A stretch of 64,000 nt of DNA. Origin: a candidate division FCPU426 bacterium (GTDB lineage: Bacteria > Oederibacteriota > Muellerivitia > Muellerivitales > Muellerivitaceae). The stretch covers positions 32,001 to 96,000 of the forward strand of contig CAVTWJ010000023.1 of the NCBI GenBank assembly GCA_963738405.1, written 5' to 3'. This document shows positions 31,056 to 55,788 of this stretch, piece by piece (within the stretch, counting starts at the first letter, position 1; each line of letters begins with the position of its first letter). The position numbers were made by a program, and so were the translations under genes. Under the pieces are notes generated by a model, which searched no databases, was not told where the DNA came from, and saw only the letters and a program-made list of their open reading frames with translations.

Positions 31056-33564
31056 GATTTTATTCCGTCTAAGTCCGGGCACTACAAGCAACTGAGCCAA
31101 GGAGGTGCCCCTATGACCTAGTTTGTTTGTTTCAATCCCGTCTAAGTCCGGGCACTACAAGCAACAGAAGCTACTGCTGTTGTCTCTGTTTGTCGGATTG
31201 ATGTTTCAATCCCGTCTAAGTCCGGGCACTACATGCAACTAAGAATAAAGGATTTAAAGCTCTGAAACAAAAGGGTTTCAATCCCGTCTAAGTCCGGGCA
31301 CTACATGCAACTTCTGGTTTCTCAAACCAGCGTTAAAGCTTGAGACGGTTTCAATCCCGTCTAAGTCCGGGTACTACAAGCAACCTTGACATTGCAATGG
31401 AATACCTTTTGGCCGAAAAAGTTTCAATCCCGTCTAAGTCCGGGCACTACAAGCAACAAAGACATTCCTGATCGACACAGCGCCGGTCCAGAAGTTTCAA
31501 TCCCGTCTAAGTCCGGGCACTACAAGCAACAAAGCCATGAGTAACCAACCAGAAACCGCAGGGCCAAGTTTCAATCCCGTCTAAGTCCGGGCACTACAAG
31601 CAACTTTGGATCTGACGCAGATTGGTCAGTTAAAATTTGGTTTCAATCCCGTCTAAGTCCGGGCACTACAAGCAACTGATATTTGTCATGTTTTTGCTCT
31701 GGTGAGCTTCTGTTTCAATCCCGTCTAAGTCCGGGCACTACAAGCAACTCTTAGAGGAGATTCAAATATCCTTGTTGTTCAAGAGTTTCAATCCCGTCTA
31801 AGTCCGGGCACTACAAGCAACAGGGAATTCCAGCGAGAGTCGCTTTTGGAGATGCCGAGTTTCAATCCCGTCTAAGTCCGGGCACTACAAGCAACCCAAC
31901 AACTGATTCGTATAGGGATCGGCATTACTGGTTTCAATCCCGTCTAAGTCCGGGCACTACAAGCAACCTGGTATAGCGAGAGTGGTCAAGTCAAATGGTA
32001 CTGTTTCAATCCCGTCTAAGTCCGGGCACTACAAGCAACTACAATTACCGCGAAGGTTTGATCGACGAGAAGCATGTTTCAATCCCGTCTAAGTCCGGGC
32101 ACTACAAGCAACGGTGGATCAACGCCGTCGCCAGTCGTCACGCCAGTGTTTCAATCCCGTCTAAGTCCGGGCACTACAAGCAACCGCAGAAACCGGGCAC
32201 AAAAGAGAAGTACAAGGTCAGGTTTCAATCCCGTCTAAGTCCGGGCACTACAAGCAACTGAGTTATTTTCCGCCATTCAAGGATTTGCTTCAAGTTTCAA
32301 TCCCGTCTAAGTCCGGGCACTACAAGCAACTAATTTAGTGATCGGTAGCCAAACCCTAGAAGGGTGAGTTTCAATCCCGTCTAAGTCCGGGCACTACAAG
32401 CAACCAAGGGGACATTCTCACCATTACCGTGAATCTGGCGGTTTCAATCCCGTCTAAGTCCGGGCACTACAAGCAACTTCGGGTTATGGATGGGTGGAAA
32501 AAAATGGTTTGTGTTTCAATCCCGTCTAAGTCCGGGCACTACAAGCAACCCAGCCATTGCACTGTTGGCATCTCCATATGTGGGAGTTTCAATCCCGTCT
32601 AAGTCCGGGCACTACAAGCAACTTCGGCTCATCAAGGCGACACCGTGGAGTTCGAAAGTTTCAATCCCGTCTAAGTCCGGGCACTACAAGCAACTCAGTA
32701 AAGTCCATCGAACATCCGTTTAGATGGGAGTTTCAATCCCGTCTAAGTCCGGGCACTACAAGCAACGTGTATAATCTGACTCCTTGATTTCTCGATTGGT
32801 TTAGTTTCAATCCCGTCTAAGTCCGGGCACTACAAGCAACATCCGGACCATGTTTTTAGGAATAATCGCCATAATGTTTCAATCCCGTCTAAGTCCGGGC
32901 ACTACAAGCAACACAAGGTGGAGGACGATATGATCCGTTTAACGCATGAGTTTCAATCCCGTCTAAGTCCGGGCACTACAAGCAACAGACGGCCTCGGCT
33001 TCAACCAGCGGGCAACAGCAGTTTCAATCCCGTCTAAGTCCGGGCACTACAAGCAACTTACCAAGAAGGTATTCCTTACGAGGATTCGAGGGTATGTTTC
33101 AATCCCGTCTAAGTCCGGGCACTACAAGCAACCGAAACTGATTGAAGAATCAAAGGAAGTTTGGGAGTTTCAATCCCGTCTAAGTCCGGGCACTACAAGC
33201 AACATCCGCAAGGGAAAGAGGTAGCTCACTTTCAATTCGTTTCAATCCCGTCTAAGTCCGGGCACTACAAGCAACACTTCGAGCGATGAAGGGATGCACG
33301 AAAACCTAGAGTTTCAATCCCGTCTAAGTCCGGGCACTACAAGCAACTTGACGAGGCCCTCACCGCCTCACCAGAAGCCAGGTTTCAATCCCGTCTAAGT
33401 CCGGGCACTACAAGCAACTGTTACTGAAATCGCATGGGCAGACATGAGTCTGAAGTTTCAATCCCGTCTAAGTCCGGGCACTACAAGCAACCAATATTGG
33501 TACGCGTCAAAGCCAGGGCAGTTTAATGTTTCAATCCCGTCTAAGTCCGGGCACTACAAGCAAC
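31056..33564 (-). CRISPR. CRISPR array: 35 repeats (37 bp) and 34 spacers (~34-38 bp)
   Basis: Plus-strand repeat GTTTCAATCCCGTCTAAGTCCGGGCACTACAAGCAAC. The minus strand ends in ATTGAAAC (Cas6 8-nt handle). Variant repeats cluster at the left (31056, 31203, 31275, 31348), marking the trailer, so the leader is at the right. Confidence 0.98.
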
Positions 33565-37700: not shown

Positions 37701-37742
37701 TGCTTAATTCCTTTCTAATAACGAAGAACAATTAAAAATTAA

Positions 37743-38912: not shown

Positions 38913-38938
38913 GTTAGAACCTTTCTGATTAGCTGGTT

Positions 38939-41359: not shown

Positions 41360-41361
41360 GC

Positions 41362-42783
41362 TTATACCCCTTCCGAAAATAGTTTTTGAAACGTGATATT
41401 GGTGGATTCACTCTGCAGACCGGTAGCCCGCGATTCTTTTTCCAATCGCAATCGACCGGAAGCCTTGCTGGTACCCACCCTCAGAACACCGTAATGCAAG
41501 GCCGCCAGGGAAGAGGCAAGCCAGCGCACCTCATCCCCGGAGGGGTTTTGAATGGTGACTTGTGTCTTAAACCTGACCCCGCCAGTCAAAACGTGAGCAT
41601 CAAAAAGAAAGCCCTCGTTGGCCCCCCCTGAAATCCGATCGATGGCCACATGCTTTCGTAGCTGAACCTGGTTATCCGTAGAAGGCTGTTCGGAAAGTGC
41701 GTCGCCTATGTGTACCCGGCCCCGGGAATACAGGCTCCCGAACAACCGCATGATGGGGCAAGGAACTTCTTTTTCCAGGGAACCTGGATCGGCAATCAGG
41801 GCGTCCTGGATATGAACACGTTCATGATTCTCGGCATAACCCCATCCCACTTGATCGCCTTTTGGCGCGAGATCATTCCCGATCATGTCTAAATGCCGTG
41901 CATAGTTATCCGCGACAGGATGCCCTTCTCGGGCGGCCAGACGACTCATCCAACCCCGGAAGACACCACGTAGGCTGGAACCGGGCAATCGCCACCTGGT
42001 CTTGCCGTCGGCACCGACGACTTTTTGGGGGCCAAGATCGAATTCTCCTCCGTCCCCTTCGCCGACTAACAGGTCCTCCCCGGGTGGTATGGAAAGCACC
42101 AAGTCGATCCGCAGGTCCTTATCACCCGCGCCAACAGGCATCAGGGTTTCTCCGGTTATGGGAAAGATCCCCTCCCGGATTTTGTATCGCTCATCCATGT
42201 ACTCGGCCTGCTGATCCAAGTTGGCGCAATCAAAGGCACGATAGGAAGGTTCCCCCACTAGCTGGAGACGACCCAAGCCCCGAGAAGAATGGCCCCCAAC
42301 AGTCAACCCGCCTTTCAAAAGCGCCACCAGGCTTCCCATAAATGCCCTTGCCTCATCCCGCTCATCGCATTCGAGCCAGAGGACTAGGTCGGTCGATGTG
42401 TCCGGTGGCAGGGCCTCGACCTCGAAATGCGCGCCGCCCATGACCGATCCTGTGTGCCGGTCGATGGCGTTATGGGTGCGCCAGCTCTCGCCTTGACCGC
42501 CGGTCTCAAGCCGACAATCGGACACCTTAAGGAGGCTTGGATGGTAAGCGTCGTTCGTGTTGGCGTCGCCGAACCACTTCGTGACAAGGGCGTCTTCCGT
42601 CGCGACCCCGTGATGCCGGGCCCAGGCATGCCGCAGAGCGCCCGCCAGGGCTGTACCCCGCAAGACCGGTCGGCCTATCCCGTCGCGGGCCAGGGCCAAC
42701 CGATTGGCCAATTGCCCTTCACCTGGACTGACGCCTTCCGGAAACACGATTTTGGAGATTAAACGGTGGATGATCTTTGCCAT
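41362..42783 (-). CDS. cas7: Double-RAMP Cas7-Cas7 (Csm3-like) fusion
   Basis: Two RAMP units: GTALAGALR/NAIDRHTG/VGGHSSRGLG and PGSSLRGVFR/HVAIDRISGG/VGTSKASG; TAATG coupling to the upstream gene. Confidence 0.85.
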   Translation of the reverse strand: MAKIIHRLISKIVFPEGVSPGEGQLANRLALARDGIGRPVLRGTALAGALRHAWARHHGVATEDALVTKWFGDANTNDAYHPSLLKVSDCRLETGGQGESWRTHNAIDRHTGSVMGGAHFEVEALPPDTSTDLVLWLECDERDEARAFMGSLVALLKGGLTVGGHSSRGLGRLQLVGEPSYRAFDCANLDQQAEYMDERYKIREGIFPITGETLMPVGAGDKDLRIDLVLSIPPGEDLLVGEGDGGEFDLGPQKVVGADGKTRWRLPGSSLRGVFRGWMSRLAAREGHPVADNYARHLDMIGNDLAPKGDQVGWGYAENHERVHIQDALIADPGSLEKEVPCPIMRLFGSLYSRGRVHIGDALSEQPSTDNQVQLRKHVAIDRISGGANEGFLFDAHVLTGGVRFKTQVTIQNPSGDEVRWLASSLAALHYGVLRVGTSKASGRLRLEKESRATGLQSESTNITFQKLFSEGV

Positions 42784-44831
42784 TAGCGCCCCTCCAGACC
42801 CGAAGTTAAAAGGTTGTGCCAAACACGAAGAGCCTTCTTGGCTTTTTTCGGGTCATTCTGGATTGCCTGAATCAGTACCGCCTGGACATGTTTCCAACGG
42901 CCCCAGATCCTCCTCGACCTGGTATCTTTCTGGCGTTCCAGGAAATTGACTGCTTCCTGCCCGCCCTGTTCTTTGATACGCGCCGCGACCGCCGCGACCT
43001 GGGACGCGCTTAACCCGTCGTTCTTGGACATTTCACACCACCCCAAGGCCCATTCACCTGCCTTGTCGCTAGCCAGTGTCGTCAGGCTGGGTTCGGGCAA
43101 GTACAGTCCCTCCGCAATGCCCGGGTGGGGCAAGACGGCCCCGTAACCCTGGATGCGCCCATCCAGATCCCCCCCCGAGTCAACCCCCAGCCCCCGGTTA
43201 ATCTGATTCCAAAGGTTTTCCGGCTCCTTTTCCAGCACAAAAACGGACCCGGGCAGGAAAACCCGGCGAGCCGCCAAACGACCTGCGGGATCGATCCGAC
43301 CGCCCAAGCCGTAGCGGTTCCAGCCAAATCGGACACCGCAAGCAGCCATGTGGCCGACCTCGGCAACCCTCGCCGATTTTTTGGGGGAGGCAATCTTACC
43401 CCACCCGCTTTCCTCCACCAGACGGGCCAGGGCGGTCTCGGCGCATTTCACCTGCCAATCATCGGGAATGGCCGCGGGGGATTGAAGAACGAATACTTTT
43501 TTCTTCCAGCCCTTCAATTGCGTGGCCGGTTCTATGTTCCTTATCAACTTCAAGAGCCCCCCCCCACGAACGGTGCGGGCCTTGCCAAAGACAAATAGCG
43601 GGTTTTTTTGGACCAATGATTGGAGTTTTTCAGCGGCCTGTGGAGGTAGCGTGACCCAACCGGCGTAATTAAGCGGGGCCATCGCCTCGACTGTGAACAA
43701 GTTGCGCTTGTCCTTACCTTCCGGGTCGTAATGAACGGCATGAGCCGTGAGAATGCGAGGCATCTCACCCGACTTCCAGAGGAGGACTTTCCCTGAGGAA
43801 TCGCGAAGTAAGACACCGTCAGTGCCTTTTAAGGGGGAAGCCTTGGGAACCTGCGTCCAGTCATAGGGCTCGACCGCCGAATCGCGGAATTGTTGGTCTA
43901 TTTTGAGCTTGCTCATCCTGTGGCTCAATGAAACCCGCACCGGGTTCATCAGTTCCCCGTTACCCTCCTCTAGGAGGGTCGGTAGGAGGGGCCAGGCCCT
44001 GGTCCTGCGGTCCAAAATAGCGGCATGGGCTAGGGCCGAATCAGCTTGTGCTAACCGAGAAATAAGGGCGCCCAATACCGCCGAGGCAGGGATTCCCAAT
44101 CCGGTTCGCAAGATGTTGTTGCCCATATCAGGTGTTTCCGGGCAGCAAACCGGGTCCTCGGCCGAAAATGTAAGCCTCAATGTCACGGCCGGACCATCCG
44201 GTTCTTTGGCGGCAGGGGTTACCATGGGGTTTGGGGTTTCACCCGGCAATCCCTTTTCCATTTCCCTCGCCAGTTCCCGCAAAAAGGCTCCCGGGGTCCG
44301 CTTTTCGTCCGCAATTTTGACCAGACAGGAGCCGCTTCCACGGTTACGGTTACCGCCCACCGCTTCCATGGTCAATAGGGCCAGGGATACGCCAAGGGTA
44401 ACAACCGGCGATGCGCCTTCCGCAATCTCGATTTTCCCCATAAATTTTGTTCCGACGGCCACAGCTTCCGATGTTCTAAGCGTCTGGTTCACTGCCACCC
44501 CCAGTTCCCCCACGGCGGTCCTTGTGATCGGATGGACAAGACCTTGGGCCCCTTCGGGCAGGCGGGCATCGTGAACTTTCACCTGACCCTGATACCCTGA
44601 ATCCCCCTCCTGGCCTGGACGACCCAGAACCCGATTGGTCAGGGTCGGCCAATCCCGGCTGACGGCGATCCGGCCGAGGGTGTCCCTCAAAAGACCCTTG
44701 AGGTGGCTGCTTCGGACCACCGGGCGGTCCTGATGATCCCGTGCCACGATGTCGTTGACCGTTTCACCACCCTTCCCGCTGCCAATCTCTCCATCGCTTA
44801 ACAACTCGATCTCATATTGGATTGTTGTCAT
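42783..44831 (-). CDS. Cas7-Cas5(Csx10) fusion with helical C-terminal Cas11-like domain
   Basis: SSHLKGLLRD, VGGNRNRGSG (Cas7); IPASAVLGAL, FGKARTVRGG, PGSVF, RIQGYG (Cas5/Csx10); helical tail LSASQV... Confidence 0.75.
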   Translation of the reverse strand: MTTIQYEIELLSDGEIGSGKGGETVNDIVARDHQDRPVVRSSHLKGLLRDTLGRIAVSRDWPTLTNRVLGRPGQEGDSGYQGQVKVHDARLPEGAQGLVHPITRTAVGELGVAVNQTLRTSEAVAVGTKFMGKIEIAEGASPVVTLGVSLALLTMEAVGGNRNRGSGSCLVKIADEKRTPGAFLRELAREMEKGLPGETPNPMVTPAAKEPDGPAVTLRLTFSAEDPVCCPETPDMGNNILRTGLGIPASAVLGALISRLAQADSALAHAAILDRRTRAWPLLPTLLEEGNGELMNPVRVSLSHRMSKLKIDQQFRDSAVEPYDWTQVPKASPLKGTDGVLLRDSSGKVLLWKSGEMPRILTAHAVHYDPEGKDKRNLFTVEAMAPLNYAGWVTLPPQAAEKLQSLVQKNPLFVFGKARTVRGGGLLKLIRNIEPATQLKGWKKKVFVLQSPAAIPDDWQVKCAETALARLVEESGWGKIASPKKSARVAEVGHMAACGVRFGWNRYGLGGRIDPAGRLAARRVFLPGSVFVLEKEPENLWNQINRGLGVDSGGDLDGRIQGYGAVLPHPGIAEGLYLPEPSLTTLASDKAGEWALGWCEMSKNDGLSASQVAAVAARIKEQGGQEAVNFLERQKDTRSRRIWGRWKHVQAVLIQAIQNDPKKAKKALRVWHNLLTSGLEGR

Positions 44832-46369
44832 GAGTTCACTTCCGTCACCCAGTTCATCCTTGAATCTTCTTCCAGTAGGAGTAGCGCATCTATCACGGGT
44901 GTGGTACGCACGTTATGCCCGTTTTTGACCGATTTTTTCCATTTGCCTCCGGGTTTTTGGGGGCTTTCACCCTCATCCAGGTCGTTACTCAAAACTTCCT
45001 GGTTCTTCGCCAAGCTCTTCGCGAAGATCTTTCGGTCAAAAAAACCGGCCCTCATCCCTTTCAGCACACGGTGGCGGACCGAACCGGGCACTTTGCTGTA
45101 TTCCTGGGCTAACCGAATGAGGTCTCTCAGATCCGCGACCGGATAAGGCCTTTCGGTCAGTTGGATCCTCTCGTTCTGTAGATCGGCGTCCTGAAAAACC
45201 AATTCACGCTGTCGGCGAGCATGGGGTGTGTCGACCAGCCCCTCGGTGACCGATTCCCAGTCCACAAAAGAGGGGGTCGGAAAAACTTTTTGTTCACGGC
45301 CACCGCCCTTGGCGCTCGCCAGAAGCAGCTCGGTATAGGAGATGGCGGTGCTTAGCGGCAGGCCAATCGGGGCGAAGAGAATCCCGGCCGAAAGGGTGAT
45401 GTGGGATCCGGTAGCGGGCCACAGGTCAATGCCCCCCTTTTTCGCAAGGGCTGCCAATTCGGTGCTTTTCTCCTCGAAAACCCTGCAGGCTTCCCTTACA
45501 AAAGTCATCGCGTAACCGACATGACAAAGAAGGATAATGTCGTCCCCGCCGACCACGAGAGGCCGGATAGGCAGGATTATCTCCCCCCCGTCGACATCGA
45601 AACCTTCCTTTAGAGCGCGGATTTCTTCAATAATTAAGTCGATACCCTTCCTGCATGCTTCACGGCTGCAGGTGTCCAGGTCGCGACTCATCCGCCGAAG
45701 CCAACCGGTGAAAACGTCCGCCCGGTCCCCTAATTTTTCCACGGCCTTTCGATGCTGGGTTCCAATGTCGTTCCCATCCATGGCAATCACCGCCCAGCGG
45801 TTTCGGCCACCTAGTCTCTGCAAGGCTATTTTTCCCGCTGGGGTCGATTTATCCACGTCGTGGAAAAAGCTGAATTTCAAACCTTCTCGGCCATGACCAT
45901 TAACCCCCCCCAGCAATTCATCCTCAAAATAACGGTCCATCCGGTCCCCTTTTTGCCAGACCCGTTTTTTAACGATGTCGCTGACGCCGTTATTGGCCGG
46001 GTAGAGCCCGCTATCGGCACAAGGTTTGCCTCCCAGTTCGATGCTGGAAGGTAGCCAGGGATAAGTTTGGTCCGCGCCGTGGATGGCGACCGTGAAGTCA
46101 TCCGAAACGCCGAAACAGATGGTTAAACCATCCCGGTGCGCGGCTTCTACCAACTTGCGTCGTACCCTTTCCACTGCCTGGTCATTGGTACACTTGTAAG
46201 CGCCTTTTCCGCCGCCTGAAAAGAGGTGCTCTCCTTCCGGATCATTTATGCCTGGCGCGGTCACCCTGTCGTAACGGTCAATCAGCGCGCTTGATCCGCA
46301 AATGTATTTAAGGCGTGGGATTGAAAAGATGAAAGATTGAATGCCTTTTAAGTCATAGCAAAGATACAT
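44828..46369 (-). CDS. cas10: Cas10, HD-less, with intact GGDD palm
   Basis: Begins directly at DLKGIQSFIF; SGGGKG; AVIAMDGNDIG; PLVVGGDD; TLSAGI; 513 aa. Confidence 0.92.
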   Translation of the reverse strand: MYLCYDLKGIQSFIFSIPRLKYICGSSALIDRYDRVTAPGINDPEGEHLFSGGGKGAYKCTNDQAVERVRRKLVEAAHRDGLTICFGVSDDFTVAIHGADQTYPWLPSSIELGGKPCADSGLYPANNGVSDIVKKRVWQKGDRMDRYFEDELLGGVNGHGREGLKFSFFHDVDKSTPAGKIALQRLGGRNRWAVIAMDGNDIGTQHRKAVEKLGDRADVFTGWLRRMSRDLDTCSREACRKGIDLIIEEIRALKEGFDVDGGEIILPIRPLVVGGDDIILLCHVGYAMTFVREACRVFEEKSTELAALAKKGGIDLWPATGSHITLSAGILFAPIGLPLSTAISYTELLLASAKGGGREQKVFPTPSFVDWESVTEGLVDTPHARRQRELVFQDADLQNERIQLTERPYPVADLRDLIRLAQEYSKVPGSVRHRVLKGMRAGFFDRKIFAKSLAKNQEVLSNDLDEGESPQKPGGKWKKSVKNGHNVRTTPVIDALLLLEEDSRMNWVTEVNS

Positions 46370-46425
46370 CGAGAACCCCTTTCAATCATTTGTTCGAGGC
46401 CGCGTAATAACAAGACGTTTGATTC

Positions 46426-47601
46426 TCAAGACAGTAATCCTAATACCTTAATTGAAACCAACGTCCGATCAATCCCCAAAACCGCCTGGAGAGGATGCGC
46501 ACCTGAGCCCCGCCCCAGTTCGTTGACGATCAGCGCTGCTTTCGATGGGCCGAGTTGGGTGATGAGCCGTTTCCCAAGGCGGGACCGCGACGCCCCCCAC
46601 CAATTCGTCTCTAAAATCATGTCTGTATCAAATGGGCCCGTTAATAAATCATCATCGTTTTTGAAAATCCTGTAGGCAATCCTGCAAAACTCCAAATCCT
46701 TGGGTGTTAGCATAATTTTGATCGCATTCCCCGCGTTTGACTGCGCCTGATTGGTTAACCTACAGGGCTTTAACTGACAGGTCTCGCATGACTTAACATC
46801 CCGCGGACAAAGAATTCCATTTTTGCGCCACGCCAAAAGCGCCACCCAGAGGCTCTGTTTCGGGTCCAGGTCAAGCCGTTTCCCGTCCACTTCGATGTAA
46901 CCAGGGGCCTTTTCCAAGTTCACCGTCAAGCTGACCTGCTTCATGTTGAATTCCTCAAAAGCCGTCGTGAGCGAGGTTTTCAATAAATCGAGATGGATAT
47001 TCCTGAAAAAGTTATTGAGGCGAGGAAAAGGCACTTCAAAAAGATTAACCCATTTTATTTCGGCCTTCTTTTTGGGGTCAGGATACCACCCATTCGAAAG
47101 TTTCTTTTCCTTTCCCGGGTCCATGAGAACGTGGTAAAGAGTGTCCCCTTCCCTGGCGAAGGCGGACATACCAAGGGTCAGGTAAGCGGACATGGTTTTC
47201 CGCCCGCCCGCGAGGGAAGCTTGAAGCCCCACCGCCGGGTCTTTTGTGAATTCGTCCAAACGTTGGGCGATTTCCTCTTCCATGGCGGCGTTGGCCTCGC
47301 TGTCGCCAAGATCTTTTTTTATTTTCATTTTGGGGGGAATATGGATTTGAGATTCACCAAAAAGCGGGAAGGTTTTAGCCGGTAATTTCCAATCTTTCCA
47401 AAGCCTGGCAAAAGGGCCTTTCTTCATATCGATCAAGCCGGCTTCCAGAATTTTATTTTTACCTTCGCTGGTCGTGATCACATGAATTTCAGTAAGAATC
47501 ATTTTGTTTCTTACCACCAAAGCCCAAATCGCCTCGGTCAATACGGCCGGTGATTCCCCACCCGTCGCCAGAAAAATACTCTTTTTCTTATTCATAAACA
47601 C
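46426..47601 (-). CDS. NE0113/Csx14-type CARF protein with a C-terminal Cys-rich, HTH-like domain
   Basis: LATGGESPAVLTEAIWAL, EIHVITT, ASLAGGRKTMSAYL, GDTLYHVL. Confidence 0.8.
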   Translation of the reverse strand: MFMNKKKSIFLATGGESPAVLTEAIWALVVRNKMILTEIHVITTSEGKNKILEAGLIDMKKGPFARLWKDWKLPAKTFPLFGESQIHIPPKMKIKKDLGDSEANAAMEEEIAQRLDEFTKDPAVGLQASLAGGRKTMSAYLTLGMSAFAREGDTLYHVLMDPGKEKKLSNGWYPDPKKKAEIKWVNLFEVPFPRLNNFFRNIHLDLLKTSLTTAFEEFNMKQVSLTVNLEKAPGYIEVDGKRLDLDPKQSLWVALLAWRKNGILCPRDVKSCETCQLKPCRLTNQAQSNAGNAIKIMLTPKDLEFCRIAYRIFKNDDDLLTGPFDTDMILETNWWGASRSRLGKRLITQLGPSKAALIVNELGRGSGAHPLQAVLGIDRTLVSIKVLGLLS

Positions 47602-47761
47602 CCCCCCTTAAATTAGTTTTCAATCTTAAACCCGCCTGTCTTGTCTTTATAAATATCTTTCGCCCGTAAAGTCATTTAACGCTTCCTTAACATTGGTTTT
47701 CTTTTTATCCACTAATTTTAAGCCATTGTCTCAAAAGTCTTTTCCAATTCTAGTTGTGTTA

Positions 47762-48430
47762 TTAACGTCCTCGTCCCGAGCTTCTAAATGAACAACCCAT
47801 CGGCATTCTCATGGGAGGAGGCGCCGAGTAGTACATCACCCGTGGGGCGGAATAAATGACCCTAGCCGGTTGGGGATTAGCGTATCGAACGTAAGCCCGC
47901 CGAATAACCCGCCTTGGCGGGGTTGGGAGATAGACCCGAACATAACGATGGTCAATTACGGGGGGGCGAACAATCGTTCTCCTTTGATGGTATTGGTAGG
48001 ACGGCCTGGTGAAATGCCGGATCGGGTTTGAGATATATCCTCCTGTCTGATGGGTGATCGCTACCACACTAGCTTGGGTATAGGATTGCGACGAATAAGG
48101 ATAAACCGAAGAAGCCATTTGGGCTGAACTAGGTTGATTCGCGTGTCCTACAACTACGTTCCGGGATGCCGAACGCGTGACATGATTTTCACCTTCTGCG
48201 GGTGGATTACTAACGCGATGGGAAAGGGCCTCTAGACCCAAGAGGATGATTCCCCCACCCATTGCCAAGGTGAAAAGGATCGGACCCCAGTTTCGCTGGG
48301 CGCGCGGAACCGGTCGGTAAGGCGCGGTAACTCCCTGAACCGTTCTATGGCTCGGCGAAGAGCCAACGGGATTGATGGTCCCTTGAACCCTGTCGAAAGT
48401 GAACTGATCATTCGTTACGAAGCGTTCCAT
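47762..48430 (-). CDS. Single-pass membrane protein with low-complexity R/P/Y-rich tail
   Basis: GGAGG RBS; TM segment ILFTLAMGGGIILLGL. Confidence 0.55.
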   Translation of the reverse strand: MERFVTNDQFTFDRVQGTINPVGSSPSHRTVQGVTAPYRPVPRAQRNWGPILFTLAMGGGIILLGLEALSHRVSNPPAEGENHVTRSASRNVVVGHANQPSSAQMASSVYPYSSQSYTQASVVAITHQTGGYISNPIRHFTRPSYQYHQRRTIVRPPVIDHRYVRVYLPTPPRRVIRRAYVRYANPQPARVIYSAPRVMYYSAPPPMRMPMGCSFRSSGRGR

Positions 48431-48536
48431 TGGGCCTCCTTTCTTTTTTATCCTTATCCTTTAATTGAATACTACCAGTTCTTCGACATCTTAAAACTTT
48501 TGCAAAATTGCGCCCTCCTGAAAGCCTTCCTGGTGT

Positions 48537-50657
48537 TTACTCATCAGATATCACCAGAGAGAGCCCTACCATCGGCTCGATTCTTTTGAACACCACTTTT
48601 TTGCCCCGCGTCGCCATGGTCTGTTCCGCCAGTTTGTCCAGGATCTCCTTTTGGAGCAGGCGGTTCATGGGCCTGGCCCCGAACTCGCTGGAGAAGCCTT
48701 GTTCGGCCAGCCAATCGACCGCTTCCGGAGTCACCTCCATTTCCACCCGCCCCTTCAAGCGTTCCTGGTACTCCCGGATCCTCATGCGGACAATTTCGCC
48801 GAGGGCTTCCCTGGGCAGAGGTTTGAAAAGTATGATCTCATCCATTCGATTCAGGAACTCGGGACGGAAAAACCGCTTCAGTTCACCGGTCAACCCTTCC
48901 CCCGACGGACGACCATCCCGGCTAGACGCTCCAATATTGCTCGTCATGATGATGACCGTATTCTTGAAATCCACTGATTTGCCCGCACCGTCGGTCAAAC
49001 GTCCATCGCCCAGCACCTGCAAAAAGAGGTTGAAGACATCCGAATGCGCTTTTTCCACCTCATCTAACAGCAGAACCGCGAAAGGCCTGCGGCGGACCGC
49101 CTCGGTCAGCTGGCCGCCCTCGCCATAGCCGAGGTAAGAGGGGGGCGCCCCGACGAGCCGCAAAACGGAATGCTTTTCGCTGTATTCGCTCATATCCAGC
49201 CGGACCATGGCCTTTTCCCCCCCGAAGAAACAATCGGCGACCGCCTTGGCCAATTCGCTCTTTCCCACGCCCGTGGGGCCGGTGAACAAAAGGGAAGCGA
49301 TCGGCCTTTTGGGGTCCGCTAACCCAGTAAGCCCGCGTTGAATGGCCCGGGCGACCACATTCACAGCCCCATCCTGGCCTCGGACTTTTTCCCGCAGTTG
49401 CTCGGCTATATCCGCCAATTTGAATTCTCCCGACCCATTAACAATGGAAAGAGGTATGCCTGTTTTTTCTGAAACCACCTCGGCGATATCAGTTGCAGTG
49501 ACCCTTGCGCTTATATTTTTTGCAGATCGAATATCCGCCCGAAGGCTGACCCTGGTCGCGGCTTCATCCAACAGGTCGATGGCTTTATCCGGCAGGAAAC
49601 GGTCCCCAATGAAACGGGTGGATAGGCTGACTGCGGCTTCCAGGACATCTTCCCCTATTGAAACGCCATGATGAGTTTCATAACTTTCTTTAAGACCTCT
49701 CAATATTTGGATACTGTCCGCAGCGTTCGGTTCCCCCACCCAGACCTTTTGGAACCGACGCGCCAATGCCGGGTCTTTTTCGATATGCTTGTGGTATTCG
49801 TCCAATGTGGTCGCCCCAATGCACCTCAAACCCCGTGCCAAAGCGGGTTTCAATATGTCGGAAACACTCGAACTGGCGTTCAATGCCCTGCCAAAAAGAG
49901 CGTGAAGCTCATCGATGAATAGGATGCTAGATGGCCCCGATTGCGCTATTTCGTTCAGAAGATTTTTAATCCTTTCTTCCATCTCACCCTGCCAAACAGC
50001 CCCACCCATGATTTTCACAACGTCAACCGCCATCACTTTTGTCCCCCAGAGAGGCCTTGGGGCCTGGCCTGAAGCAATGAGTTGGGCTAAACCTTCCGCG
50101 ATGGCCGTTTTACCGACACCGGGCTCGCCTACCAACACGGGGTTATTTTTGGTTCGACGCGAAAGAATGCGAATAACGTTAGCCAATTCTACCTGTCGGC
50201 CGATCATGGGTTCCAAATTGCCCTGGCGCGCTTCTTCCGTAAGATTCCTTAAAAAACTGGAGGCGGCAACTGGGGATGGACCAGACCGGGGCCCTCGGGG
50301 CTCGGGCCTAACTGGATTTCTAAACTCTTGGAGTGCACAGTCCAACAAAGGATCTTCGGGATAATGGCCGTTAATCAGCGTTTCCCAAAGGCAGTTCAGT
50401 TCGACGGTGCCATTAGGCGCCGAGGATTGCATGGCGCGGATGGCATCCTGGGATACGTGAAGCGTTTCAATTGGAAGACCCCCTCCGTTCGCAAACCTTA
50501 AGTTTGCTTTTAATCTAACAACTTTATCGGATGGCCTAACGATTTCACCGTTGTCAGCGATAGCAAGAACCAAATGCCTGGATTTCAAAAATGGGTCAGG
50601 ACCGGCGTGCCGGGCGGCCGTTAATAGCAGGTTTTCAGGAATCTCAATGGGTTGCAT
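48537..50657 (-). CDS. Clp/Hsp100 AAA+ ATPase (two NBDs) with an atypical N-domain
   Basis: RRTKNNPVLVGEPGVGKT, LFIDELH, EKDPALARRF, RFLPDKAIDLLDEA, GPTGVGKS, LLLDEVEKAH, FRPEFLNR, GARP. Confidence 0.92.
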   Translation of the reverse strand: MQPIEIPENLLLTAARHAGPDPFLKSRHLVLAIADNGEIVRPSDKVVRLKANLRFANGGGLPIETLHVSQDAIRAMQSSAPNGTVELNCLWETLINGHYPEDPLLDCALQEFRNPVRPEPRGPRSGPSPVAASSFLRNLTEEARQGNLEPMIGRQVELANVIRILSRRTKNNPVLVGEPGVGKTAIAEGLAQLIASGQAPRPLWGTKVMAVDVVKIMGGAVWQGEMEERIKNLLNEIAQSGPSSILFIDELHALFGRALNASSSVSDILKPALARGLRCIGATTLDEYHKHIEKDPALARRFQKVWVGEPNAADSIQILRGLKESYETHHGVSIGEDVLEAAVSLSTRFIGDRFLPDKAIDLLDEAATRVSLRADIRSAKNISARVTATDIAEVVSEKTGIPLSIVNGSGEFKLADIAEQLREKVRGQDGAVNVVARAIQRGLTGLADPKRPIASLLFTGPTGVGKSELAKAVADCFFGGEKAMVRLDMSEYSEKHSVLRLVGAPPSYLGYGEGGQLTEAVRRRPFAVLLLDEVEKAHSDVFNLFLQVLGDGRLTDGAGKSVDFKNTVIIMTSNIGASSRDGRPSGEGLTGELKRFFRPEFLNRMDEIILFKPLPREALGEIVRMRIREYQERLKGRVEMEVTPEAVDWLAEQGFSSEFGARPMNRLLQKEILDKLAEQTMATRGKKVVFKRIEPMVGLSLVISDE

Positions 50658-51897
50658 GTTGAGCCCGCCTTATCTTTTTCCCGCAACACTCGCAGGAATC
50701 CAGGGGATCGGTTTTGACCCCATACCACCTAAAAGGCGCCAACCCCTGTTTGAAGCCGGCAGCGCATAAGGGTGTCATCTTTCCTTCATAAGGGCCTTCG
50801 CGTCGGGTTGCCTGGAAAAAGAAACCATGTCCGTCGGCGAAATCTTCCATCCATCCCTCATAGCCACTGGGTTTTCCGTAAGTCAGGGCGATGAGGGCTA
50901 AACGGGCCATGAAGGCAGGCACGGGCGCGATATCCACGGCCAGTCCGGCCCAAATGGCCGTTTCCTTGTCAGCATAAGCGGGCAGGTTTCGATCCGCCGA
51001 GTGTAACGATGAGATTTCTTCGCTTTCATTGGAGAAAAATCCGCCGCCATAAAGACAGGCGAAACAGGCTTTTTGATGCCCCGGCCAAAACCAAAAAACA
51101 TCCCCGCCCACGCCCCTTTGAAGAACCCTTCCAATAACGAGAGGCTTGTTCCCAGTAACGCAGGCCTGATTGGCTTGGAACCGGGTTGGGTTGTTGTCCG
51201 TACCTACGACGCACAAGGAGGATTGTTGGACTAAGGCCGCGAGATTCATTTCGCGCATATCGCCGTGTAGGGTTTGCACATCAACCCATGGGTTTTTTTG
51301 TTGAAGCATAGACTTGACCGCATCAACCTTCCGGCGGCCTAATTGATTCAATCCAGCCGTATGGCGAAATAGATTCTCAAGGGCAATATGGTCTCCATCC
51401 ACCAGTATGAAGCGCATCACACCCGATTGAACTAGCAGTTGCGCTGTTTGGGAACCAAGTGAACCGCAACCCAATATCAAAACGGTTGAATCGGCCAAAT
51501 CGTCTACTTCCAACAAACCCTTTTGTCTGTCAAAAAGGAGTTCCCTTTTAGGCAATTCACTGAGAACCAAATCAGTTTCCTCGTCGTCACGGCAGTGGTA
51601 AACATGGGGATTTTCACCCTTATGGTGTTTTAGAATCACGAAACCCTCTGTGGGCGCAAACTGCTTCGCACGGGCCAACAACCTGGTAGGAATTTCCATT
51701 CCGTCCGGAACCGCGACTAAGGGGCTCGGAAGGCCAACCGACCGCCGGGCTTCCTGGCTGGACGGATCGGGGAAAACGTGCCATACCCGGCCTTCATCAA
51801 GAACCCGGCTACCCGCAGGGAAAAAACAAGGCTCGGGGGGCAAACGATCCAACCCCGGCCAAAGAAAAGCCTTGTTGGGGATTGAAGAAATCTTCAT
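50644..51897 (-). CDS. ThiF/MoeB/E1-like adenylyltransferase
   Basis: ILGCGSLGS, LVDGD...NLFRH, GRRKV, GTDN, CFAC and CECC zinc pairs. Confidence 0.92.
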   Translation of the reverse strand: MKISSIPNKAFLWPGLDRLPPEPCFFPAGSRVLDEGRVWHVFPDPSSQEARRSVGLPSPLVAVPDGMEIPTRLLARAKQFAPTEGFVILKHHKGENPHVYHCRDDEETDLVLSELPKRELLFDRQKGLLEVDDLADSTVLILGCGSLGSQTAQLLVQSGVMRFILVDGDHIALENLFRHTAGLNQLGRRKVDAVKSMLQQKNPWVDVQTLHGDMREMNLAALVQQSSLCVVGTDNNPTRFQANQACVTGNKPLVIGRVLQRGVGGDVFWFWPGHQKACFACLYGGGFFSNESEEISSLHSADRNLPAYADKETAIWAGLAVDIAPVPAFMARLALIALTYGKPSGYEGWMEDFADGHGFFFQATRREGPYEGKMTPLCAAGFKQGLAPFRWYGVKTDPLDSCECCGKKIRRAQHATH

Positions 51898-52106
51898 TCG
51901 GTCACCTGGTTCTTTCCCCCAAAGCCCCGGGCGGCGATCTGCTGGATCGCCAAGTTTTGGGTTTCACGGTTGGGTTCGCCCATCCGGAGTTCACCCGTGG
52001 CGGGATCCATCAAGATGGCTTGGCCGGGGGTTTTACGAGGCAGGGGGGGAGCCGTAACCTCGGGCTGGGAGTTTCTTAACCTGTTGAATTCATCCATCAG
52101 ACCCAT
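51894..52106 (-). CDS. 70-aa peptide with near-terminal Gly-Gly (candidate conjugatable tag)
   Basis: GGAGG RBS; ...IAARGFGG-KNQVTE*; ATGA overlap with the E1 gene. Confidence 0.7.
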   Translation of the reverse strand: MGLMDEFNRLRNSQPEVTAPPLPRKTPGQAILMDPATGELRMGEPNRETQNLAIQQIAARGFGGKNQVTE

Positions 52107-52133
52107 AAAGCACCTCCAGTTATTTTTCGGTTA

Positions 52134-52880
52134 TTAAACCGACCAGCCTTTTTCTGAATCGTTCAGCGCTCTTCTTGATTCGATATTACCAACTATTTTT
52201 AAACCTACCGGATTTGCAATTTTACATTCCGTTAAATTCTTCCCTTGGCCTATCGATTGTGTTCTGGCGTTCCCTTCCGCAGGCCGAAAATCCTTTGACG
52301 GTGGCTCTGAACACTTTTTTTCGAGGCCGGAATTATTCCTTGAAGCAGGAATGATTTTGATGGGAACCGGAAAATACTCGCCCTTAGGTAAAAACAGTGT
52401 CGCAGTCAAAACCAGTTTGGGTTTAAACGTTTTTGAGATGGAAGCAACAACGGCCATGAGCGGAAGTCCGGTTGATTGAGCGGTTGATTCCATCGTTGAA
52501 ATATCATGGCCGCTCACTGTTGGCAGACCCAAAGAATGGTGGGAATGCCATTGGCCCATATAGGCAAAACCCTGCAAACCATTCAGTTCGGCATTATGAA
52601 TTTCATAAGCAGGATCTTGTGTAAAGAAAGCGACATGCTTCACGGCTTTAGGGCCTGGGCCGGTTATCCGGGATATTAAGAACCATTTCCCCAGGTACAA
52701 CTTTCCGTAGAGGCCGCCCCCCGTTTCGTTTCTGGGGTTGGCAAAAGTTTCTCTTTCGATTTCTTTGTGGGCCGATTCCCTTATAAACAGACGTAAATGA
52801 GTCACGCCCGTCGTTTTGAAAGAAGGTTTTCTTTTGGCTTTGGGTTTGAACAGTTTTATCCAGAACATTACACGCCCCAT
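52134..52880 (-). CDS. JAB/MPN+ (JAMM) metallo-isopeptidase
   Basis: ETGG.L.G, GPGP, GQWHSHH...SGHD (E-HxH-S-D). Confidence 0.88.
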   Translation of the reverse strand: MGRVMFWIKLFKPKAKRKPSFKTTGVTHLRLFIRESAHKEIERETFANPRNETGGGLYGKLYLGKWFLISRITGPGPKAVKHVAFFTQDPAYEIHNAELNGLQGFAYMGQWHSHHSLGLPTVSGHDISTMESTAQSTGLPLMAVVASISKTFKPKLVLTATLFLPKGEYFPVPIKIIPASRNNSGLEKKCSEPPSKDFRPAEGNARTQSIGQGKNLTECKIANPVGLKIVGNIESRRALNDSEKGWSV

Positions 52881-53329
52881 TCATTAAAAACTTGTTGGAT
52901 CGATTGTCCGGTTCTGAGATGCACGATGAAAGCTTCGGACCATAGCCGGGTTTTTACACACAGGTTGTATATGCTGTCGTTCGGTTTCCAGTCGTGGATC
53001 GTCACACAGAGCCTTAGCCTATTTTTACGGTTTGGCACAAGTCCAAGGACATGAAACGAAGCGTTAGCGCTTACAAACTGATCCCCTTGCCGATCAATGA
53101 CCGGATTAGGCTCATCAACAAGGACAAAGGGTTCAATGGAGCTTTCCTCTGGAAAATCGATGGTGTACCTGAACAAAAAACGCTCATTCGTCGGGATATT
53201 GATCTTAAACACGATAATTTCATTCCTGTCCCGAGATTCAGTTTCAACTCTCGCGTCCTGGAACCCATGAGCCCGTAACATGTTAAGTTCGAAGTCAGCC
53301 CTAATCAGGCGCTCTTGGGTGTAAGCCAT
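52868..53329 (-). CDS. Prokaryotic E2/UBC-like protein
   Basis: N-terminal helix RL..(D/E), beta strands, FP....P.V.V..P, FHVL...RLC....WKP..SI, LW: UBC-like His/Cys/WxP spacing; GAGGAG RBS. Confidence 0.65.
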   Translation of the reverse strand: MAYTQERLIRADFELNMLRAHGFQDARVETESRDRNEIIVFKINIPTNERFLFRYTIDFPEESSIEPFVLVDEPNPVIDRQGDQFVSANASFHVLGLVPNRKNRLRLCVTIHDWKPNDSIYNLCVKTRLWSEAFIVHLRTGQSIQQVFNEWGV

Positions 53330-53724
53330 TGGATTTTCTCCTCTCTACCGCGATTCTCTCTACCCTCGTTTAAACCTTACCGGAATTTAGTCACTGTGTG
53401 TTTATTTGCAATTTTGAGAATTATGGGTCTCCTAACCCGACTTTCGGATGCTACCACTGAATTGTCTGGAGAACGGTTTTGCAAATTTGCGGGGCGGAGA
53501 CCGAAGAAGCGTACAAAAGACTAGAAGCAAAGAAGTAAGCTGGTACGCAACTTTGTGTAAGTTCTGTGTTGATTGGCTTTTATGAGGACATTCCAAACGC
53601 GAAGAAGAGTTTAATGGCAGGGTTTTACTCAACAAGCTTTCATTTAAACGGAAATTGGATGTGCATTAACTGGAAAAAATTATTACAGGGCTTGGAAACG
53701 AGTGATTTCTTAAAAGCTCAAAAT

Positions 53725-53925
53725 TTACGGATCTTCTATATCATTACTTCCCTGGTACAAAACCACATTTGATTCTTCCCAGGTTTGGAGGGGGAGTTGG
53801 TCGCTGGTCCAGACTTTCAGGATAGCTTTCCCGTCATTTTTCGAAAGGATGATCTTCTTGACCTGACCTCTAATCTTGAACCGCAGGTGCTGAACCCAGT
53901 CATTGATTTCGATTTTATTAGTCAT
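53725..53925 (-). CDS. Small hypothetical protein (SH3-like pattern)
   Basis: INDWVQH..F.IRGQV; 66 aa. Confidence 0.4.
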   Translation of the reverse strand: MTNKIEINDWVQHLRFKIRGQVKKIILSKNDGKAILKVWTSDQLPLQTWEESNVVLYQGSNDIEDP

Positions 53926-53967
53926 GATTTTGGCATGTGTTTAATTTTATCCATCTAGTTGGACCCT

Positions 53968-54966
53968 CTAAAGAACAGCTCGAAGTTCCGCAAACCGAGC
54001 CAGCACATCCCTCCAATGCGGGTATGGGGCGTAACAAAGAAGTCGGCATTGCTCCTCGTACTCAGCACCAATGACCGTTGCCAATTCCGCAGGTGGAAAA
54101 AGAGCATCGCTAAGCGAAAAACGCATGTCTTCGGGATAGAAATAGCTCTTGGGGAAGGCCGTGCGGCTGATATGGTCGTAATCCGTTTTGATGGTGCCGT
54201 ATTCCTTTGACCAAAGCATGGCGATGACTTCAGGCTGAGACGCCAGTTGGAAAAGATCGTAATAGTGTCGCGCATAACTGCCAATTGGACGCCGGTCGCG
54301 TTTCAACAGCTCCACCTTACTGTGGATGGCAAACATTTTCTCAACAAACGTCCGCCTGAAATGAAGCAACCGGAAGGGAAATCCACCCTCATCCTCCGCT
54401 CCCAAAGACGGACCTTTCTCCTTCAGAAACTGGCCGAGATAGGATTGAAGATTCACGATTGTTGTGGGTTCACGCCCGCTGGCCGTACCGGCCTCCACAA
54501 GAACACGATTGGCGACTTCCCCAGAACCACCGAAGCGCTGCGTATAGGAGAACCTGTCACTACGGCCAAAACCGCCAATCGTTTGACTCTCCTTTTCGAT
54601 GAACGTCAGCGCAGGATGGGCACCAATGGCGTCCCGGAGTTTCTTGAGTTCCCGGTCAATCGCCCGTTTAACCAACGCAGGTTGAAAAGCGGCAGGGTCA
54701 AGAAAAAGGTCTATGTCTTCCGAAAATCGCTGGATCAAATTCCAGCCTTTGAGCAGGCTGGTGCCGCCCTTGAAGATGACTTTGTCCCCTGCCGTGGCCG
54801 CAATAATGCGCAGGGCTTCAGTGACGTAATAGTCTTTCTCGATGATGGCCGGACGCAATCCTTGGGCTCGGAAATGTTCCGCCGCCCGGATAATCGCCTG
54901 TTCGAAATCAGGGTTTTCATACAGTCTCACGTCAACGACGCTCCTTTGCCTGCCATTCGGAAGCAA
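53968..54966 (-). CDS. AbiEii-type nucleotidyltransferase toxin (second module)
   Basis: IEKDYYV, FKGGTSL, RFSEDIDL, RTFVEK, ARHYYDL; true start probably near 54935. Confidence 0.9.
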   Translation of the reverse strand: MLPNGRQRSVVDVRLYENPDFEQAIIRAAEHFRAQGLRPAIIEKDYYVTEALRIIAATAGDKVIFKGGTSLLKGWNLIQRFSEDIDLFLDPAAFQPALVKRAIDRELKKLRDAIGAHPALTFIEKESQTIGGFGRSDRFSYTQRFGGSGEVANRVLVEAGTASGREPTTIVNLQSYLGQFLKEKGPSLGAEDEGGFPFRLLHFRRTFVEKMFAIHSKVELLKRDRRPIGSYARHYYDLFQLASQPEVIAMLWSKEYGTIKTDYDHISRTAFPKSYFYPEDMRFSLSDALFPPAELATVIGAEYEEQCRLLCYAPYPHWRDVLARFAELRAVL

Positions 54967-55678
54967 ACTTTAAACTAGAAAAAATTCCAAAGTCGAATCT
55001 AGAGAATGGGTTGAGGGATTCTCGTAAACGGCGCAACACTTTCGGATTTTTTCCAAGCTGTTTCCCCGCCGCACCCAATATCGCCCTAACCCTCGGTGGT
55101 TCGGAGTCCGCCACACTGAGCAAACGCTCAAAGCACCCCTTTTGGGATAACAAATCCATGGTTCGGCTGATGGTTTCGGCAGGGGACATTTCACTCGATT
55201 TCCCCCCCTGGCGCAGAAAATCCAGAAGCGCGGCTTCCTTTTCCGCAAGGTTTCCCCATGCTTCCGGTCTGCGGGTATGAATGACTGTATTCTTCCCAAT
55301 AAGCTTGCGGGGAAGGCTTGAGGCGCTTGTGGCGATCTCGCTTTCCTTAGGGTTCTGGGTTGTGAACCCCAAGAGATTCGCGGCTGCAATCCCTGAAGGA
55401 AACATCGTCTTTCGCTTCGAAGCAAGCATCTGGATTAAAGCCGGATTTGGACGGCTTTTACCAAAGTTGGTTTGCCGTGTCCGGTAATAGACACCTTTGC
55501 TAAGCCGATCAATCATCCCGGCGCGCGTAAGCCGTGAGAGAGCCTGGGCAACTGCTGCAAATGGAAAATCCCGAAAATCCTCCAAACGCCATAATCGTTC
55601 GCCGCCATTTTCGACCCGTTGGCGGACAAGCCCGGAAATTTTGGTTGGATTGGAAGGCGTTTTAAGGATCGTGGACAT
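54932..55678 (-). CDS. AbiEi-like / DUF6088 antitoxin (second module)
   Basis: AVAQALSRL...G.I.RL.KG.YY, AANLLGFTTQ. Confidence 0.85.
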   Translation of the reverse strand: MSTILKTPSNPTKISGLVRQRVENGGERLWRLEDFRDFPFAAVAQALSRLTRAGMIDRLSKGVYYRTRQTNFGKSRPNPALIQMLASKRKTMFPSGIAAANLLGFTTQNPKESEIATSASSLPRKLIGKNTVIHTRRPEAWGNLAEKEAALLDFLRQGGKSSEMSPAETISRTMDLLSQKGCFERLLSVADSEPPRVRAILGAAGKQLGKNPKVLRRLRESLNPFSRFDFGIFSSLKFASEWQAKERR

Positions 55679-55708
55679 ATTGATAATATCGGGCCAAGGC
55701 AACTTTAC

Positions 55709-55736
55709 GTCAAGTTTTTTTGCTGTAAAACTTGAC
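55709..55736. promoter_or_regulatory. Inverted repeat, probable AbiE operator overlapping a TTGAC -35-like element
   Basis: GTCAAGTTTT-N8-AAAACTTGAC upstream of the antitoxin ATG. Confidence 0.65.
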
Positions 55737-55788
55737 ACTTATCAATTAACCCCCTTTTAGAGCCACCTATGCTCAACCTCATCAAGGT

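Follow-up and report, generated by a model that had tools for sequence, protein, structure and literature searches.

The window analysed here is a 64,000-nucleotide stretch of DNA from a candidate division FCPU426 bacterium (NCBI GenBank assembly GCA_963738405.1, contig CAVTWJ010000023.1, positions 32,001 to 96,000 of the forward strand), and all coordinates refer to positions in this stretch unless another locus is named. We found that a small open reading frame (ORF) on its minus strand (51894..52106), which encodes 70 residues, may specify the precursor of a small protein tag without a β-grasp fold that is matured by a JAB peptidase and conjugated by E1 and E2 enzymes; we place the probability of this reading at about one half. 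It was drawn from a conserved C-terminal site followed by disposable sequence, a tandem arrangement of related modules in one relative (L011), the constant association with JAB, E1 and E2 genes, and a parallel with the substrates of Atg7. The original prediction, which was made from the sequence, had described a Pup-like, apparently unstructured tag with a masked C-terminal Gly-Gly. As interpreted now, the gene, its enzyme context, a relaxed form of the Gly motif and the lack of a predicted β-grasp fold have been retained from that prediction, and the Pup-like, unstructured character was not supported.

The small gene and the module family

The small ORF is placed between the JAB gene (52134..52880) and the E1 gene (50644..51897), begins with ATG and ends with ...IAARGFGGKNQVTE at the C-terminus. 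Its composition was Pro-rich and low in hydrophobic residues, as originally described (Pro, 7/70; I/L/V/F/M/W/C, 17/70). A Shine-Dalgarno sequence, GGAGG, was read from the sequence 6 nt upstream of the ATG (52113..52117, minus strand), and the TGA stop codon overlaps the ATG of the E1 gene as ATGA. The only close relative of the small protein in the collections searched was P0001, which is encoded on the metagenome contig L003 in the same gene order as in the window (JAB, small gene, E1 and Clp-like gene). Comparison of the two over 69 aligned residues revealed a protein identity of 85.5% and a DNA identity of 79.7%, with a ratio of non-synonymous to synonymous substitution rates (dN/dS) of 0.119 overall and 0.069 for residues 1-64, the latter reflecting 24 synonymous versus 9 non-synonymous substitutions. 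The corresponding values for the neighbouring genes were 0.167 (JAB), 0.208 (E1) and 0.093 (N-terminal part of the Clp-like gene). The identity between the two small proteins ended at GFGG, after which the tails KNQVTE and GLKVK were unequal in length. The codons for G61-F62-G63-G64 (51915..51926, minus strand), which are conserved in L003, form the proposed maturation and activation site, and the six codons after them (51897-51914, minus strand), which diverge from L003, form a candidate removable tail. Because of the Shine-Dalgarno sequence, the ATGA coupling to E1 and the dN/dS of 0.069 up to G64, the small ORF is, judged from its sequence, a real gene that is translated and under purifying selection, and its C-terminal tail is free-running. 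AlphaFold2 also predicted secondary structure in its product, as detailed below.

The small protein nevertheless appeared to be almost an orphan. A word-indexed search of 5.8 billion proteins returned P0001 alone, and a profile search of 1.84 billion representatives returned P0001 and a cadherin-repeat protein, P0003 (E-value 2.3e-4, six repeats), which was judged to be a chance match to the D-x-x-T-G-E-L hairpin motif. Another candidate relative, L004 (59% over 26 residues), was dropped, as the matching ORF was absent there. The top score in the ESM Atlas was 0.78, which is under the lead level of 0.9.

Upon reading 23 DNA loci via the E1 family, we found a module of ~55-75 residues in 19 of them, located 5' of the E1 gene, fused to E1 or, in L011, just 3' of E1. 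The module comprised a helix, a β-hairpin and a short strand, and neither it nor the E2-like protein of the window belonged to any family in Pfam, PADLOC or NCBIfam. Separate module genes were present directly 5' of E1 in 11 loci (the window, L003, L005, L006, L008, L009, L013 and L022-L025), and the module was fused to the E1 N-terminus in seven (L007, L012, L015, L026, L028, L030 and L031, with L012 broken downstream) and in two further module-E1 proteins (P0010 and P0012). The contig of L029 begins inside E1 and was left out of the module judgement. In L031 (L031:1393-2712, minus strand), the Atg7-like N-terminal domain was missing, and ~10 residues connected the module directly to the adenylation domain; genes for JAB and E2-like proteins were located upstream of that E1. 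L007 and L012 are two contigs of one metagenome-assembled genome, which thus holds two copies of the whole system, and the L012 fusion is split into two frames (118 and 419 residues). In L011, a 255-residue protein encoded just after the E1 gene (L011:6952-7719) carries two tandem modules at its start, which end in ..GFFA and ..GFFS, followed by a Gly/Ala-rich hydrophobic region and a whole-protein end of ..LFG. This protein resembles a fusion of a poly-tag precursor with a membrane-active effector, and a metallophosphoesterase-like gene follows it.

A hidden Markov model (HMM) of nine modules found members that it had not seen, in L022 (E-value 1.6e-12), L024 (2.2e-7), L011 (5.4e-7), L023 (8.1e-7), L026 (1.2e-6) and L025 (0.0071), and a later HMM found those in L028 and L030 (~1e-10) and in L031 (0.0069); these E-values are relative to small six-frame sets of loci. 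Since the HMMs found members outside their training set, the module family is, on this profile evidence, real.

The C-terminal site was analyzed in a MAFFT alignment of 22 modules, in which 60 columns contained at least 18 residues. The column of the window G64 held G in nine modules, A in six and S in three, and this G/A/S content (18/22) was the highest of the 60 well-filled columns, the background being 21.7%. Phe was found at position -2 relative to the site in 14/22 modules, compared with an overall frequency of 3.3%, and at -2 or -3 in 17/22. After the site, the 11 split genes ended within 1-7 more residues, the fused forms contained a variable stretch and then the first E1 strand, and the L011 protein contained the second repeat and then its Gly-rich region. 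The conservation of the Gly motif that the original prediction had proposed as a check was thus found in a relaxed form, with G/A/S at the site, Phe at -2 and a variable tail or a domain after it, and strict Gly was present in 9/22. By analogy, the site resembles the masked aromatic-Gly end of Atg8. As the L011 protein ends in ..LFG and the cyclase encoded in L015 ends in ..FGA, the E1 clade repeatedly meets F-G/A ends.

The AlphaFold2 model of the window protein, obtained with a two-row alignment, contained helix 3-13, strands 30-33 and 40-43, and helix 47-59 (mean predicted local distance difference test, pLDDT, 66.5; predicted template modelling score 0.22). The predicted layout is therefore a helix, a Pro-rich linker, a β-hairpin and a second helix, followed by GFGG and the KNQVTE tail. 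In the model of the L007 fusion, the module part contained helix 5-19, strands 25-29 and 34-38, and short helices (pLDDT about 50-63). Its site, H62-F63-A64, was located within a stretch (57-65) with a pLDDT below 50, which is therefore predicted to be an exposed linker. A β-grasp fold was predicted in neither module, in line with the non-β-grasp claim of the original prediction; its description of the protein as Pup-like and unstructured was not supported, given the helices and hairpin predicted at low confidence and the lack of a Pup ligase in the genome. Foldseek, queried with the small-protein model of low confidence, returned nothing at E ≤ 0.001. A complex prediction of E1 with the small protein scored 0.28 against a mark of 0.32, which counts neither for nor against binding.

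Enzymes, relatives and genomic setting

The small gene is part of a minus-strand operon with the order E2-like gene, JAB gene, small gene, E1 gene and ClpA-like gene. The JAB and E1 neighbours named in the original prediction were borne out, and we also found an E2-like protein of 153 residues (52868..53329, minus strand). An alignment of eight E2-like proteins (the window protein and seven relatives) revealed that its Cys, C118 in LRLCVT, is invariant and is preceded by a conserved His-rich motif; no relative was found in 60 related genomes, and a word search returned the protein itself alone. The JAB/JAMM metallopeptidase (minus strand, 248 residues) contains an E...HSH...SGHD motif and is proposed to act as both maturase and de-conjugase. 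It matched the PADLOC JAB profile (1.9e-12) and the JAB part of 6A-MBL cap2_3 (1.4e-10), and Pfam Prok-JAB at only 0.0099. The E1 adenylating enzyme (minus strand, 417 residues) comprises an N-terminal domain, a ThiF adenylation domain (Pfam ThiF, 8.5e-33) and two CxxC pairs, which were kept in the family alignment; its best defence-library matches were to PADLOC Cap2-type E1-E2 proteins (1.2e-30). Residues 278-310 of this E1 include an EE(V/I)SS motif, in which S296 is invariant and S297 nearly so, followed by AYAD with an invariant Tyr. Read at the sequence level, catalytic motifs are present in the enzyme genes of the cassette.

The last gene of the operon encodes a double AAA+ unfoldase of 706 residues that is ClpA/ClpB-like by library matches (48537..50657, minus strand). 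It overlaps the E1 stop codon by 14 nt, is translationally coupled to E1 and is conserved in L003, where the same gene follows E1. The protein matched ClpA in one stretch and ClpB in two, and the ClpB middle domain was absent. The first ~130 residues were located outside these matches.

We compared the E1 model of the L007 fusion with known E1 structures and obtained Z-scores of 24-27. Model residues 64..475/479 aligned with full-length Atg7 (4gsk_A and 4gsl_A) over 340-347 residues with Z-scores of 24.1-24.6. In particular, superposition of residues 64..475 on residues 7..579 of 4gsk_A gave a Z-score of 24.6 and a root mean square deviation (rmsd) of 11.9 Å over 340 residues, and the alignment with Cap2 (7to3_A) extended over 428 columns. 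The N-terminal domain of the window E1 aligned with the family, the Atg7-like model of this domain being that of the relative L007. So, in these models, the E1 of the family would have an N-terminal domain like that of Atg7 or the Cap2 linker, with the module in front of it. We also considered whether the module is the split-off first part of a Cap2-like linker domain and rejected this, as the domain of L007 that resembles the Atg7 N-terminal domain starts at about residue 64, after the module.

The E1 family was represented by ten proteins with 27-72% identity in a word-indexed search and by nine loci in a search of genome contigs; plasmid matches were found as well, and two plasmid loci were read. 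In samples of three phyla, family E1s at E ≤ 1e-60 were present in 7/401, 3/401 and 2/401 genomes, with the seed genome counted in each. On the scale of the E1 profile, generic ThiF proteins score ~1e-31 and family members 1e-94 or better, except for the broken copy in L027 (5e-63). A scan of genome contigs with a single E1 sequence returned no matches, and neither did a scan of viral contigs with the E1 alignment. The JAB gene was located upstream of E1 in 9/10 relatives tested, the chosen frame in L005 giving no match.

The partner genes fell into different kinds. The window and L003 have the Clp-like ATPase, and L005, L007 and L008 have a HerA/DUF87-like NTPase of ~1000 residues, which is followed by WD40-like proteins in L005 and L007, the two loci scanned for them. 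In L006 and L015, the partners are a SMODS cyclase with SAVED-TIR or Cap4-SAVED, which makes these loci true operons of CBASS, the antiphage signalling system based on cyclic oligonucleotides. The cyclase C-termini are ..FGA in L015 (L015:6365-7012) and ..EKFSPREE in L006 (L006:6949-7836), and the latter may be a masked end as well. As annotated, the cyclase gene of L015 is short at its N-terminal end (215 residues), and its match covers the second half of SMODS alone.

The setting of the window operon is a defence island. Library scans and the repeat array revealed a type III CRISPR-Cas locus downstream of the operon on the same strand (31348-47601, minus strand), with a CRISPR array of 37-nt repeats (31348..33564), RAMP proteins, Cas10 (44828-46369) and a CARF/Csx1 protein (46426-47601). 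Control of the Cas10 cyclase by the cassette, in the manner of Cap2/Cap3, is conceivable by analogy, the same cassette being located beside SMODS cyclases in L006 and L015. Between the Clp-like and CARF genes, a gene at 47762-48430 encodes a 222-residue protein of no known family that is rich in Pro, Arg, Tyr and Ser and contains one hydrophobic stretch. Upstream of the operon, genes for an AbiEii nucleotidyltransferase toxin (1.8e-28) and an AbiEi/DUF6088 antitoxin-like protein overlap at their ends (53968-55738) and form an ordinary type IV toxin-antitoxin pair. A 66-residue ORF without a known family (53725-53925), which is a candidate gene, is located between the AbiEii and E2-like genes.

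The proposed mechanism and its alternatives

In the proposed mechanism, the JAB peptidase would remove the tail (KNQVTE, or would cut one Gly earlier) and expose an aromatic-Gly-type end, ..GFGG. The Atg7/Cap2-like E1 would adenylate the exposed C-terminal Gly, the tag would be handed over to the E2-like protein at its invariant Cys and from there to a target, and the JAB peptidase could also reverse the conjugation. Cleavage, adenylation, transfer, the target, and a link to the ClpA-like unfoldase or to type III CRISPR-Cas are steps that we infer only.

Several observations weigh against this reading. The site was occupied by other residues in 4/22 modules, namely Y in L006, T in L012 and P0010, and N in L031 (A if the alignment is shifted by one residue); moreover, the 22 modules include five near-identical, closely related pairs, and the site counts therefore overstate independence. 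In L010, L014 and L027, E1 was present and no module was detected. Both of the module models that lack a β-grasp fold are of low confidence. In the crossover loop of the E1 family, we found that Cys was conserved nowhere from the first CxxC to the AYAD motif, and a canonical E1 thioester is therefore unavailable; the reaction would require either an oxyester step like that of Bub or a transfer straight from the adenylate to the Cys of E2. In the CBASS relatives (L006 and L015), E1 is expected to act on the cyclase, as it does in Cap2 systems, and therefore the module need not be a substrate. Profile searches, finally, did not prove that the window ORF is a member of the module family. With the nine-module HMM, it was outside the 12 best of 1222 six-frame window segments, the comparison of A1 with A5 by hhalign gave a probability of 5.6% over 17 columns, and BLASTP of the window ORF against L013 aligned 14 residues with an E-value of 0.012.

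With HMMs that included the closer group of L011, L013 and L025, the window ORF ranked third (E-value 0.97), second (1.6) and first (0.15) of the 1222 segments. It has in common with the modules its position directly 5' of a family E1, its size and the order of its elements, which consist of an N-terminal helix, a hairpin (hydrophobic-D-P-x-T-G/K) and an F-G/A/S end. The hairpin sequence is ILMDPATGELRM in the window ORF and LVFDPATGRVNV in L013, and the C-terminal ends are AR-GFGG in the window, AR-S-GFFA in L013 and Q-D-GFFA in L025. We consider it likely, with good though incomplete confidence, that the window ORF belongs to the module family.

The fusions are also a point against the tag, as they fit a modifier only if JAB frees them and fit an accessory domain of E1 equally well. 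The main alternative is accordingly a detachable N-terminal module of E1 that is never conjugated and that docks a separate E2 or substrate or regulates E1, the GFGG tail being a remnant of the flexible linker or hinge between module and E1 in the fused relatives. We regard this alternative as possible, if somewhat doubtful. It agrees with the fusion of 9/22 modules to the E1 N-terminus, and the sole difference between the split L006 and the fused L015 is whether a gene boundary falls at the site. In L015, the site runs into the first E1 strand without an intervening linker, as would be expected of a domain of E1. L031, furthermore, keeps the module in spite of its missing Atg7-like N-terminal domain, in the CBASS relatives the cyclase (with its ..FGA end in L015) already provides a likely substrate, and linkers are often rich in small residues. 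However, this alternative leaves unexplained why the last position before the variable part is the most G/A/S-rich of the 60 columns and is preceded by Phe, why the split genes always stop 1-7 residues past the site, and why two tandem modules are located on a different protein after E1 in L011. The retention of the JAB gene beside the cassette in nine of the ten relatives tested also argues against it.

The C-terminal site would have the same features if the small protein were a pseudo-substrate or decoy of E1, whose tail occupies the adenylation site and, until removed by JAB or an infection signal, keeps the cassette inactive. Defence systems often carry brakes of this type, and fusion to E1 would suit an inhibitor acting in cis. 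We consider this explanation unlikely, as the conserved E2 Cys implies the transfer of something and no other protein of the operon has a G/A-type C-terminus.

It is very improbable that the small protein is a precursor of the kind found in ribosomally synthesized and post-translationally modified peptides, in which an E1-like enzyme would modify the C-terminus of a small peptide into a secondary metabolite, as MccB does with MccA. MccB structures were among the fold matches of the E1 model (Z-score about 24) and provide a precedent for a small E1 substrate without a β-grasp fold, but here E1 is accompanied by a JAB peptidase and by an E2-like protein whose Cys is invariant, the operon lacks an exporter or immunity gene, and the context is that of defence islands. 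A chance ORF in the spacer between JAB and E1 that is not a functional gene, as the lack of a curated family and the single close relative among 5.8 and 1.84 billion proteins might suggest, can practically be dismissed in view of the Shine-Dalgarno sequence, the ATGA coupling, the dN/dS of 0.069 and a protein identity above the DNA identity.

Comparison with known systems

Among known systems, the cassette is nearest to class 6b, that is, Cap2/Cap3 of type II CBASS (family 6b of Iyer et al. 2006), yet three features that define the class are missing in the window, namely a fusion of E2 and E1, a CD-NTase and the Cys of E1. The similarity consists of the Cap2-type E1 profile (1.2e-30), a Cap3-like JAB, an E1 substrate that is not a β-grasp protein, and the relatives L006 and L015, two true CBASS operons that contain SMODS and SAVED effectors. 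As described in part of the source on Cap2, this protein has a linker domain that resembles the Atg7 N-terminal domain, and conjugation of cGAS by Cap2 is a precedent for an E1 substrate without a β-grasp fold (10.1101/2022.03.31.486616). In contrast to Cap2/Cap3, E2 and E1 are separate genes in the window with the JAB gene in between, and the crossover-loop Cys is not conserved in the E1 of this family, whereas Cap2 uses C548. No SMODS/CD-NTase was found among the 12 proteins scanned from 42783 to 55738, where the nearest cyclase was Cas10. The window also contains a dedicated module of ~60-70 residues before E1, which is not described for Cap2 systems in the portions of the literature covered here.

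The autophagy system (Atg7, Atg3-Atg10, Atg8-Atg12 and Atg4) is similar in having a homodimer-type E1, a separate E2 and an Atg7-like N-terminal domain, although this domain was seen in the model of the relative L007 and not in one of the window E1. In the Atg8-family proteins, Phe is directly before Gly; the window protein likewise has an aromatic residue before a masked C-terminal Gly (F62 before G63-G64, with six residues as a tail). According to part of the text of PMC12005411, cleavage of an Atg8 precursor uncovers Gly116, and the family has a conserved aromatic residue, which is Phe119 in LC3. In contrast, Atg8 and Atg12 are β-grasp proteins, which the window module is not predicted to be, the maturase would be a JAB metallopeptidase instead of a Cys protease, and the catalytic Cys is missing from the window E1.

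Bil (BilABCD) and Bub (6E/DUF6527) operons also combine E1, E2, a JAB peptidase and a small modifier, and Bub works without a catalytic Cys in E1. In type I Bub, a JAB-E1 fusion cuts a fusion of the ubiquitin-like protein (Ubl) and E2, thereby releasing the modifier, as outlined in part of PMC11601596; this is a precedent for the release of a modifier from a fusion to an enzyme of its own pathway. Unlike Bub, the window has no DUF6527 protease, and its E2 keeps its Cys. The window system does not appear to belong to Bil, Bub or class 6d, because the modifiers of these are β-grasp proteins as given in parts of PMC11601603 and PMC1779556. A conserved Gly or small residue near the C-terminus, followed by a putatively removable tail of 1-7 residues in the split genes, is nevertheless shared with β-grasp modifiers (Bil, Bub, 6d, SAMP and ThiS/MoaD). 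None of the classes 6a-6e, as described in the part of PMC1779556 covered here, combines a separate E2, JAB, an Atg7-like E1 and the module.

The Pup/PafA/Dop/Mpa system shares with the window a tag of ~65-70 residues without a ubiquitin fold and an adjoining gene for an AAA+ unfoldase. Pup is ligated by PafA via the side chain of its C-terminal Glu, not by E1/E2, and its C-terminus is GGQ or GGE, the last residue being ligated. In the window protein, GG is followed by the six residues KNQVTE and is therefore not near-terminal, and secondary structure is predicted. A search for Pup_ligase (PF03136; PafA/Dop) gave 0 matches in the window genome (90.66% complete), while the control, Corynebacterium glutamicum, was detected. 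The window protein is not Pup, as the search for a Pup ligase was negative, its GG is not close to the end and the context implies E1/E2 chemistry. In the MccB-MccA pair of microcin C7, fold matches relate an E1-like enzyme with an extra N-terminal domain and a short substrate without a β-grasp fold to the present system. MccA is a heptapeptide that is turned into an antibiotic, and no E2, JAB or defence-island context is found there.

Searches of the full-text literature gave no account of the module, nor of a type III CRISPR-Cas locus accompanied by an E1/E2/JAB cassette; the scope was the text, with figures (such as the C-terminal logos of Ledvina et al.) and supplements outside it, and the result is not proof of absence.

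Taken together, the finding is probably a new variant of bacterial ubiquitination-like conjugation, in which the modifier role and the family membership of the small protein are putative. Bacterial E1/E2/JAB cassettes are known to conjugate β-grasp proteins (Bil and Bub) or a whole enzyme (cGAS in CBASS). If the tag reading is true, E1/E2 chemistry needs no ubiquitin fold, even for a free modifier, and an Atg8-like masked aromatic-Gly end together with an Atg7-like E1 would be a bacterial parallel to autophagy conjugation. As a bolder and rather unlikely extension, the modules would be a third kind of prokaryotic tag besides β-grasp Ubls and Pup and a miniature, non-β-grasp counterpart of Atg8/Atg12, matured by JAB at an aromatic-Gly site, activated by a Cys-less Atg7-like E1, passed to a Cys-bearing E2 and sometimes made as poly-tag or tag-E1 precursors; in this genome, the tag would label proteins destined for the co-transcribed ClpA-like unfoldase and would thereby serve type III CRISPR-Cas defence as one of its arms. 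The cassette is located beside three kinds of partner, namely CBASS cyclases, HerA-like NTPase and WD40 genes, and a ClpA-like unfoldase near type III CRISPR-Cas, and this variety offers several testable entry points into the control of antiviral effectors by conjugation.

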